DNA of 64,000 bases, taken from sequence record PP925834.1; one strand, written 5' to 3'. Below the pieces are notes generated by a model. That model did not search any database. It was not told the origin of the DNA and was given only the letters and a program-made list of their open reading frames with translations. This stretch comes from Escherichia phage MiataMamis. Position numbers and translations under genes: made by a program. Below, one piece after another: positions 61,679 to 61,777 of the stretch (positions are counted from its first letter, which is position 1; the number at the start of each line of letters is the position of its first letter).

Positions 61679-61777
61679 GGTGCTAGGTGATGGAATCGAA
61701 CCATCTATGTATTCAACGACTACCTCGTCTATTTTCAGGATTAAAAATCCTCGCCCTTGCCAAAGGGCTTACCTAGC
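61679..61777 (-). tRNA. atypical tRNA-like gene (about 97 nt, long extra arm; probable anticodon UUU, ambiguous)
   Basis: Acceptor GCTAGGT/ACCTAGC, D-arm GCCC/GGGC, T-arm GATGG-TTCGATT-CCATC; anticodon region AGGATTTTTAATCCT folds as a 4-bp stem with loop UUUUUAA; about 30 nt between anticodon stem and T-arm; only CC of CCA encoded. Confidence 0.5.

Follow-up and report, generated by a model that had tools for sequence, protein, structure and literature searches.

A tRNA-like gene in the tRNA cluster of an rV5-like coliphage

This work concerns a tRNA-like gene of Escherichia phage MiataMamis, which was analyzed within a stretch of 64,000 nucleotides from sequence record PP925834.1, referred to as the window in the following. 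The window belongs to an rV5-like coliphage (Vequintavirus) and contains a tRNA cluster of 0.9 kb that is 98.2-98.4% identical to that of Escherichia phages nomo, FFH2, V5/rV5, Murica and many others. ARAGORN called seven genes on the minus strand between positions 61434 and 62249. Six of these are tRNA-Pro(UGG), tRNA-Met(CAU), tRNA-Thr(UGU), tRNA-Ser(UGA), tRNA-Tyr(GUA) and tRNA-Arg(UCU), and all six encode their CCA end. The seventh gene, located at exactly 61679-61777, was returned as 'tRNA-??? (atcc)' with a four-base anticodon. This element, 97 nt long up to the discriminator nucleotide and 99 nt with the CC that follows, is shown here to be an intact member of a discrete, phage-restricted and structurally selected family of tRNA-like RNAs.

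A first-pass annotation of the DNA had described the element as having good acceptor, D and T arms, a 4-bp anticodon stem closed by the loop UUUUUAA and a long insert before the T arm. This fold was reproduced by alignment to the Rfam tRNA model (RF00005), which matches positions 61681-61777 with 37.5 bits, the gathering score being 29 and the E-value over the entire window 2.7e-4. The alignment comprises a 7-bp acceptor stem, a 4-bp D stem, a 4-bp anticodon stem AGGA/UCCU with position 27 deleted, the loop UUUUUAA, about 30 inserted nucleotides and the T arm GAUGG-UUCGAUU-CCAUC. The minimum free energy (MFE) of the element is -34.8 kcal/mol (z = -4.03), and none of 200 shuffled sequences was equally stable.

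All parts of the element lie on the minus strand. The acceptor stem is formed by GCUAGGU (61771-61777) and ACCUAGC (61682-61688) with seven of seven pairs, and the T arm (61689-61705) has five of five. Positions 8 and 9 are AA (61769-61770), with A8 instead of the near-universal U8; A8 is invariant in all family members, position 9 is A or G, and a swapped 8:14 contact could persist via U14 of the D loop. The D arm GCCC-UUUGGCAA-GGGC (61753-61768) can alternatively be drawn with a 6-bp stem and the tetraloop UGGC, as is done by the MFE fold; both extra U-A pairs are invariant, hence there is no covariation either way. The D stem is separated from the anticodon-like arm AGGA-UUUUUAA-UCCU (61737-61751) by a single G (61752), at the place where the Rfam alignment deletes position 27. 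When the anticodon stem of a normal tRNA is counted as four pairs, two nucleotides precede the first paired position. As only one G is present here, one stacking layer is missing between the D and anticodon stems, in the window copy as well as family-wide. This G and the G that follows the arm (61736) are both invariant across the family. In the loop, the triplet UUU (61743-61745) is accompanied by U33, A37 and A38, bearing out the Lys-like anticodon loop that had been suggested. In the predictor check that had been set beforehand, no canonical fold with another anticodon was obtained, the AUCC alternative of ARAGORN being non-canonical and unconserved in relatives.

The insert before the T arm measures 31 nt, compared with a variable region of 4-5 nt in canonical tRNAs. 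It is structured, a detail that the first-pass annotation had missed: a 5-bp hairpin, GACGA-GGUAG-UCGUU in the MFE fold (61715-61729), is flanked by the single-stranded linkers G-AAAAUA on its 5' side (61730-61736) and GAAUACAUA on its 3' side (61706-61714). The extra arm is thereby tethered by single strands of 7 nt and 9 nt, compared with 0-2 nt in Leu, Ser and Tyr tRNAs. The A-rich 5' linker is near-invariant, its G and A44-A46 being invariant in alignment A3, and it is unpaired in each per-sequence fold of the family. Among the non-tRNA signatures of the family, the sequence AAUACAUA of the 3' linker is the best conserved: all 27 sequences of alignment A3 have it unchanged, and it has diverged solely in Stephanstirmvirinae (AAAUACGAAAU).

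The 3' end reads ...ACCUAGC-A-CC-UUUUU-GCUGAUG, the last letters being the start of tRNA-Thr(UGU). The discriminator A73 and CC occupy 61679-61681, A76 is not encoded, and a U5 spacer of 5 nt (61674-61678, from the sequence and ARAGORN) leads to tRNA-Thr; both the missing terminal A and the short distance to the neighbouring tRNA, which had been pointed out before, can be read directly from the sequence. Neither Rfam nor the family covariance model R1 described below matched the spacers on either side of the element in the window.

Measured as a tRNA, the window copy thus passes the Rfam threshold and has a 7-nt loop with U33 and a purine at position 37 as well as G19:C56, but it lacks a 5-bp anticodon stem with nucleotide 26, U8 and a normal variable region. 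The traits foreign to the tRNA consensus are family-wide, namely A8, the invariant G before and after the anticodon stem, the 5' linker G-AAAA-N-N and the 3' linker A(A/U)ACAUA.

The element belongs to a phage-restricted family

Homologues were collected by BLAST searches with the element and then with its divergent matches, as well as by motif scans of IMG/VR and metagenomes. These searches yielded 33 distinct homologues from five Vequintavirinae genera, Stephanstirmvirinae, one Schitoviridae phage (UTK0002) and unplaced contigs. Homologues are present in Av-05 (Avunavirus), in PVP-SE1, SSE-121, GAP31, 4MG, NINP13076 and others (Seunavirus), in BIS47, Mydo and Ro1 (Mydovirus) and in Hena1 and pEp_SNUABM_01 (Henunavirus). 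The motif scans added variants from the Stephanstirmvirinae phage PD06 and from contigs that are unrelated to known phages outside the element. The rV5-type element itself occurs in about 120 genomes with 97-100% identity, and each genome has one family member.

A covariance model, R1, was built from 27 distinct sequences. It scores 34 loci at 79.8-118.7 bits, among them the window copy at 105 bits. Ordinary tRNAs of the same loci reach at most 29.6 bits, a truncated copy in phage V18 reaches 34.4 bits, and canonical phage tRNA-Lys genes obtain about 16-19 bits, as compared to at least 80 for members. The family signature consists of A8, the D loop UUUG(G/U)(C/U)AA, the arrangement G-(4 bp)-loop-(4 bp)-G, the GAAAA linker, the hairpin, the A(A/U)ACAUA linker, the T loop UU(C/A)GAUU and a score of at least about 80 bits on R1. 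Every one of these signature elements is carried by the window copy.

No Rfam family corresponds to these RNAs; the homologues from other genera fall under the tRNA threshold and touch just the tRNA-Sec model, with 23-39 bits against a gathering score of 47. Cellular homologues were not found: an exact-motif scan for the 3' signature in 185,579 bacterial and archaeal genomes gave a single match, which was false, although divergent relatives could escape a scan of this type. Our search of the literature revealed no paper that describes the family.

The fold is maintained by compensatory changes

Base pairing was evaluated for the acceptor, D and T stems and the three outer anticodon pairs, i.e. 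19 pairs, in the 33 distinct sequences. Standard pairs are formed in 625 of the 627 resulting stem cells, and 11 of the 19 pairs show changes on both sides; such double changes affect five of seven acceptor pairs and three of four D-stem pairs. The covariation score of 0.458 was reached by none of 500 shuffles (0.172), and slid partners gave at most 0.124. The anticodon-stem pair 27:42 varies as A:U, G:C and G:U, which supports the AGGA/UCCU stem. The contact between G19 of the D loop and C56 of the T loop, a signature of the tRNA elbow, is G:C in 19 sequences and U:A in 8 and is never mismatched; this joint change probably represents one evolutionary event. A hairpin is present in the variable region of every member. 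Its length and loop differ between genera, and its stem shows compensatory changes as well (GACGA/UCGUU versus GACGG/CCGUU; CCUCC/GGAGG versus CCCCC/GGGGG; GCC/GGC versus GUC/GAC versus GCG/CGC).

Compensatory changes go on within the Vequintavirus/Avunavirus clade, where pair 4:69 is A-U or G-C and the variable-arm stem changes from A-U to G-C; the T-stem pair 50:64 is A-U in the window and G.U or G-C in close relatives. In the variants of this clade 24 stem pairs, with the fourth anticodon-stem pair and the five variable-arm pairs counted, are intact, except for L047, which has a G-to-A change in the variable stem. The maintenance of the stems by compensatory change in all these phages argues for an L-shaped RNA under selection and makes a decaying pseudogene, one of the explanations initially considered, unlikely. 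Between the anticodon-like loop and the variable-arm loop no covariation was detected; loop types combine freely with arm types.

Anticodon-like loop and discriminator differ between lineages

Outside the rV5/Av-05 clade, the loop CAUCAAA is found in Henunavirus, Stephanstirmvirinae, UTK0002 and L049, and CCAUCCAG in most Seuna- and Mydoviruses. Further loops are UAUCAAA, AAUCAAG, CCAUCAG, CCCUCAAG, CCCUCCAG, CCAGCCAG and CCUUCCAG. Despite deep divergence they have the core N-[A/C/U]33-[U/G]34-C35-[A/C]36-A37 in common. These members all encode CCA and share C35, A37 and U73 without exception. The conservation of C35, A37 and U73 at such depth indicates that the loop is not free to vary. Position 33 is mostly A or C in these relatives, many of their loops have 8 nt, and the Seuna- and Mydovirus genomes with UCC-type loops also hold a canonical tRNA-Gly(UCC). 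Thus, the relatives are not ordinary decoders. Even near-identical scaffolds may carry different triplets, namely UCA in NINP13076 (CCCUCAAG) and UCC in KE22 (CCAUCCAG). Relatives with 15-24 tRNAs possess a canonical tRNA-Lys plus a non-Lys version of the element.

The rV5 lineage alone combines a canonical 7-nt loop containing U33, UUU, A37 and A38 with A73. The 31:39 pair, which is U:A or C:G in every outgroup, is flipped to A31:U39 in Vequintavirus. From G30 to C40, the element (GAUUUUUAAUC) and E. coli tRNA-Lys (GACUUUUAAUC) are alike at 10 of 11 positions, U32 of the element replacing C32. The E. coli sequence was confirmed as annotated in all 5,426 complete E. coli genomes, with a median of 6 copies. 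The identity set of bacterial LysRS consists of A73 and U34 U35 U36 (PMC9976931, Table 1) and is completely present in the sequence of the window copy. As judged by sequence comparison, the Lys-like anticodon arm and A73 are shown to be derived in the rV5 lineage and the 'insertion' to be ancestral. The earlier suggestion of a Lys tRNA with an acquired insertion is therefore not tenable, since the family, in which the extra arm and its linkers are ancestral, otherwise shows non-Lys loops and U73. The parallel suggestion of a tRNA of altered identity pointed in a useful direction, the derived features being the Lys-like loop, A31:U39 and A73.

Proposed role and alternative explanations

On this basis we tentatively favour the proposal that the element is a working representative of this phage-restricted group of tRNA-shaped RNAs. 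In this phage it may engage the machinery of lysine tRNA, either substituting for that tRNA or acting as its mimic or decoy. The layout of the cluster suggests a single promoter from which it would be transcribed along with the six tRNAs. RNase P would then cut at G1 of the element and at G1 of tRNA-Thr, 7 nt beyond the discriminator, the U5 trailer would be trimmed back to ...A-CC, and A76 would be supplied by the host CCA-adding enzyme. T4 tRNAs without encoded CCA are matured by trimming and CCA addition. Covariation shows that the RNA adopts an L-shape composed of the acceptor, D and T arms, the anticodon-like arm and the variable-arm hairpin, with the 19:56 contact. In the rV5 lineage, as the sequences show, the arm tip and the discriminator have been rewritten to match host tRNA-Lys (G30-A31/U39-C40, loop U-U-UUU-A-A, A73). 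In this form the RNA could engage LysRS, the enzymes that modify the anticodon loop and/or defence nucleases directed at tRNA-Lys. It would then serve as a spare lysine acceptor of atypical build, or else occupy lysine-tRNA factors as a mimic. A mimic or specialised adaptor is favoured over routine decoding of AAA/AAG because of the relaxed CCA end and the non-canonical scaffold, which deviates from those that ribosomes usually accept.

Phage tRNA genes have recently been recognised as a means of countering immune systems that cleave tRNAs, among them PARIS, retron-Eco7/PtuAB, PrrC and Schlafens. Infection can be rescued from tRNA-cleaving immunity by phage tRNAs, including tRNA-Lys of T5 (PMC11464382, PMC12409363), and these two papers contain no data on Vequintavirinae. 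The PARIS nuclease AriB cleaves tRNA-Lys at U36AAUC|A41, and the exchange A41C lowers cleavage (PMC12409363). At this site the element reads U36AAUC|C41, with U39 retained.

Several observations weigh against an engagement of the lysine-tRNA machinery. The phage's own tRNA-Thr(UGU) retains the AriB-sensitive UAAUCA, so that an anti-PARIS kit is not indicated. The sister genus Avunavirus has the same stem but UAU together with U73 or C73, a combination that matches none of the identity sets of E. coli, so that the resemblance to tRNA-Lys could be one drift step in a U-rich loop. The joint switch of discriminator and anticodon is moreover a single evolutionary event. The encoded CCA has been degraded by independent changes in the rV5/Av-05 clade, to A-CCU in the window and to A-CAU, U-ACA or C-ACA elsewhere, and its loss while the six neighbouring tRNAs keep theirs suggests that the 3' end may matter less here. 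Furthermore, phage V18 is a viable isolate without tRNA-Tyr, tRNA-Ser and the element, all of which are thus non-essential under the conditions of its isolation. In V18, a deletion left only the 5' half of tRNA-Tyr, joined to the final 42 nt of the element, with the junction (L005 about 1451-1543) at a short GUCG(U) microhomology within the two variable arms.

The element might instead be an oddly built elongator tRNA-Lys(UUU) that is lysylated by LysRS, delivered by EF-Tu and reads AAA/AAG as the sole Lys tRNA of the phage, perhaps being poorly handled by anticodon nucleases that target tRNA-Lys. We regard this as unlikely. It would account for the complete Lys identity set, for the canonical loop with loop-proximal pairs identical to those of host tRNA-Lys, for the score above the Rfam tRNA threshold and for the tRNAscan-based annotations as tRNA-Lys. 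In addition, no other tRNA-Lys is present in the window (ARAGORN) or in the rV5 genome (PMC3606486), and anticodon stems of 4 bp occur widely in tRNAs and can be compatible with function (PMC13092985). These published tRNAs, however, keep both nucleotides where the element lacks a stacking layer between the D and anticodon stems, and the scaffold was inherited from relatives that have A33 or C33 and 8-nt loops and are redundant with canonical tRNA-Gly(UCC). A8, the long linkers around the extra arm and a CCA end left unencoded, in contrast to all neighbours, also argue against a normal elongator, as does the remark 'isotype prediction via tRNAscan-SE inconsistent' in the LL12 record; with a median of 6 tRNA-Lys genes in E. 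coli, no need for codon supply is apparent. A suppressor tRNA, either a quadruplet (+1 frameshift) decoder with AUCC or an ochre suppressor with UUA, is suggested by the atcc output of ARAGORN and by the label tRNA-Stop(tta) of the JLBYU08 record, and it is highly improbable. In the AUCC form, the stem drawn by ARAGORN pairs the U-rich loop (AUUUU) with the invariant linker (AAAAU), which the C-rich loops of the relatives cannot do, and ARAGORN calls no relative's copy. In the UUA form, shifting the loop by one base breaks A31:U39 and leaves a 3-bp stem. Both readings were rejected, as their stems are not the covarying AGGA/UCCU stem and are absent in relatives.

Another view holds that the RNA does not decode and that its working part is the core, i.e. 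A8, the bracket of two G residues, the A-rich linkers and the extra arm, its likeness to tRNA-Lys being chance drift. Such a structural mimic might be a ligand of a tRNA-binding protein, either of the host or of the phage, or act as a processing module of the operon. The strongest non-tRNA conservation indeed resides in the linkers and the core and not in the loop, whose sequence and length differ between near-identical scaffolds like those of NINP13076 and KE22; position 33 can be A, C or U, the encoded CCA is relaxed in the rV5/Av-05 clade, and Avunavirus has UAU with U73 or C73. We nevertheless consider this explanation doubtful, as C35, A37 and U73 are invariant in the conserved loop core outside that clade, the changes in rV5 (31:39 flip, loop and A73) all point one way, and no partner protein is known. 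Similarly doubtful is an aminoacylated modular scaffold whose anticodon arm and discriminator would swap identity between lineages, serving as a nuclease-resistant surrogate or decoy against tRNA-targeting immunity or, in the UCA forms, reading opal codons at a low level. The relatives pair U73 with UCC/GCC or UCA triplets and have G1:C72, C2:G71 and the invariant C35. These features cover the larger part of the bacterial GlyRS set and recall the tRNA-Gly(UCA) of bacteria in which UGA encodes Gly; with C36, five of six determinants are present (PMC9976931), an agreement to be read as a lead only. Finally, the element could be a relic on its way out in the rV5/Av-05 clade, with CCA lost, the extra arm shortened and the loop drifted to A/U, while the family is functional elsewhere. 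The independent CCA-destroying substitutions, the shorter variable arm, G1.U72 and C73 in L038 and the tolerated deletion in V18 are in line with such decay. It is nonetheless improbable given that, L047 apart, the stem pairs are intact in the Vequintavirus/Avunavirus variants, whose differences are compensatory or wobble-preserving, and that identity is 97-100% across about 120 genomes.

Relation to known tRNAs and small phage RNAs

With class II tRNAs and tRNA-Lys(UUU), the element shares the cloverleaf, the 7/5 acceptor/T helix, the GG D loop, the T loop UUCGAUU and the 19:56 pair, and with class II elongator tRNAs also the extra hairpin between the anticodon and T arms. The window copy further resembles tRNA-Lys(UUU) of E. 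coli and phages in the loop UUUUUAA except for position 32, in G30:C40 and A31:U39 and in A73. In contrast, tRNA-Lys is a class I tRNA without an extra arm and has U8 instead of A8, and the element has no encoded A76; descent from tRNA-Lys is excluded because the homologues have other loops and U73. The bacterial tRNAs with 4-bp anticodon stems (Fakih et al. 2026, PMC13092985) and the Blastocrithidia-type tRNA-Trp likewise have four pairs and a stem top that is not Watson-Crick, here G opposite G. However, they keep positions 26, 27 and 43 with just 27:43 unpaired, whereas one nucleotide is absent from the element, and they are otherwise canonical class I decoders.

A long extra arm is shared with tRNA-Sec and with tRNA-Sec-like or allo-tRNAs; the D arm might also be drawn with the 6-bp stem and 4-nt loop of tRNA-Sec, the two extra pairs being invariant. 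The Rfam tRNA-Sec model is the best sub-threshold match on the relatives, and their CAUCAAA loop is one base off CUUCAAA, the loop of E. coli tRNA-Sec. The element differs from tRNA-Sec in its 7/5 arrangement instead of the 13-bp 8/5 helix or 9/4, in U73 or A73 instead of G73, in A at position 33 of the relatives and in the UUU of the window copy, which is not UCA. An assignment to tRNA-Sec was rejected, as the resemblance is sub-threshold only and the tRNA model out-competes it in the window. A class II tRNA charged by SerRS was also rejected: SerRS needs G73, G2-C71 and a large variable arm, and the invariant C2-G71 of the family is an anti-determinant against it (PMC9976931). Leu identity is conferred by A73 plus tertiary elements of the D loop (PMC9976931); A73 and the large arm of the window copy would be compatible with charging by LeuRS, the family discriminator being U73.

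Three further ideas on the origin or use of the RNA were dismissed. Paralogy with the phages' own Ser, Leu, Tyr and Gly tRNAs was not supported, as no outstanding partner emerged from global and end-region comparisons. An antisense target of the invariant linker is not indicated; its complement CTATGTATTC has 3 matches in the window, including the element's own site, compared with 4.4 expected. The filling of a missing anticodon in the relatives was rejected for Gly, as the Seuna- and Mydovirus genomes of the UCC type have a canonical tRNA-Gly(UCC).

The nearest functional analogy is provided by rnaC and rnaD of T4 (species 1 and 2), which are stable RNAs inside a phage tRNA cluster. Like the element, these small RNAs of obscure role are co-located and co-oriented with phage tRNA genes, and rnaC has a tRNA-like T arm and acceptor end. 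They differ in length (139 and 119 nt) and have no anticodon-like arm of the element's type. Homology was not detected: with R1 run without filters on the T4 tRNA region, rnaC scored 9.0 bits and nothing above 2.5 bits was obtained for rnaD. A likeness to anti-immunity phage tRNAs concerns T5 tRNA-Lys, which acts against AriB of PARIS and shares with the element the tRNA-Lys anticodon arm with C41 at the cleavage site; another such tRNA is T5 tRNA-Tyr, directed against Retron-Eco7/PtuAB. These are canonical tRNAs with few point changes, and T5 alters U39, which the element keeps on a different scaffold. A model of anticodon-loop mutation for phage tRNAs has reportedly been put forward by van den Berg et al. 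in 2023.

Operon layout, annotation and neighbouring genes

A sigma-70-like promoter, TTGACA-17-TAATAT (62308-62336, minus strand, by consensus match only), lies upstream of the first tRNA gene (Arg) and is the probable start of the tRNA operon. A terminator-like hairpin with a U tract (61039-61052, minus strand) is found 3' of a small open reading frame that trails the cluster and is the probable end of the transcription unit. With this promoter upstream and this terminator downstream, the element lies within one probable transcription unit. The small open reading frame (61118-61390, minus strand) is situated between the terminator and tRNA-Pro, the last tRNA gene. In relatives its product is listed as a hypothetical protein, and it appears to share a transcript with the tRNAs.

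The six neighbours had been termed canonical in the first-pass annotation. All six were called by ARAGORN, but two of them deviate from the Rfam tRNA model. tRNA-Ser(UGA) (61876-61966, minus strand) misses its threshold and scores best on the tRNA-Sec model with 39.4 bits, again sub-threshold; it has A8/G9 and an unusual D region. tRNA-Tyr (62084-62170, minus strand) is just over the threshold with 29.9 bits.

The rV5 genome paper lists six tRNAs and omits the element (PMC3606486). In GenBank, the same sequence appears as tRNA-Lys, tRNA-OTHER, tRNA-Pseudo, tRNA-???(atcc) or tRNA-Stop(tta), or is unannotated. Eighteen records of 'Campylobacter phage' (GenBank MG0656xx; hits H4-H9, H41, H53-H57 and others) are 98-100% identical to rV5-like coliphages over the cluster. 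Since their own taxonomy line reads Vequintavirus, the host label is probably wrong, or the assemblies are contaminants.

In Seuna- and Mydoviruses, the tRNA gene directly upstream of the element is also non-canonical (alignment A4: L011 925-1000, L002 1419-1494, L012 924-1000, L017 911-985, L021 926-1000 and L015 912-985). Its scaffold has U1:A72, a ...GCCA end and loops of 6-8 nt (AAGAUUC, ACGAUUC, ACAGAUCC or ACGAUA) with A33 or C33, and ARAGORN names it Ile-GAU or '???'. In GAP31, 4MG and FENT2 this slot is taken by an Arg-GCG-like gene with C37. Kissing between the loop of the element (AUC) and that of this odd neighbour (GAU) was considered and rejected, as just 3 nt pair and the possibility is absent where the neighbour is Arg-GCG. 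The unplaced phage contigs of about 150 kb whose element has a CAUCAAA or UAUCAAA loop encode a tRNA with a CUA anticodon (L049 2791-2865; L039 7862-7934), which is amber-suppressor-like and labelled 'tRNA-Pyl' by ARAGORN.

Downstream of the element, a spacer of about 190 nt is conserved within two groups of genera and begins with a tRNA-like 5' piece (GUGCAUUAGCUCAG...) (L015 1097-1287, L016 1098-1288, L012 1112-1301, L023 1112-1302; L013/L014/L018; L004 1600-1959). At the same place, Av-05 has a tRNA-like 3' end (GGUUCGAUUCCUCCACCGUCUACCA) that is not called by ARAGORN. These pieces may be further relics or non-canonical tRNA-like RNAs; for the spacer, RNAalifold gave no convincing common structure. 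HNH homing-endonuclease genes adjoin the element in Ro1 (L014 605-997), SSE-121 (L024 516-1010) and L020 (117-1544), and these insertions recall segB of the T4 tRNA cluster (L073 3254-3919). More genes called '???' by ARAGORN occur in large clusters, with a four-base 'ggca' and with 'gt' (L009 5994-6079 in PVP-SE1; L037 1035-1104). That of PVP-SE1 has the Asn and Ser(UGA) genes as its neighbours; at this place a canonical tRNA-Lys(UUU) is found in BIS47.

Implications

Non-canonical genes in phage tRNA clusters, labelled 'tRNA-OTHER' or '???', are usually dropped or misnamed, and one of them now turns out to be a discrete family. This family is under strong structural selection in several genera of large enterobacterial myoviruses and in at least one N4-like phage, has its own signature outside the tRNA consensus, and carries an anticodon arm that changes character between lineages. 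Our results should be helpful in giving a consistent annotation to about 120 rV5-type records plus their relatives, which currently go under five names, and they provide a concrete RNA to manipulate in tractable phages such as rV5 and the Vequintavirinae of the BASEL collection. Overall, the family may represent a natural tRNA body plan that tolerates a shortened anticodon arm together with a tethered extra arm.

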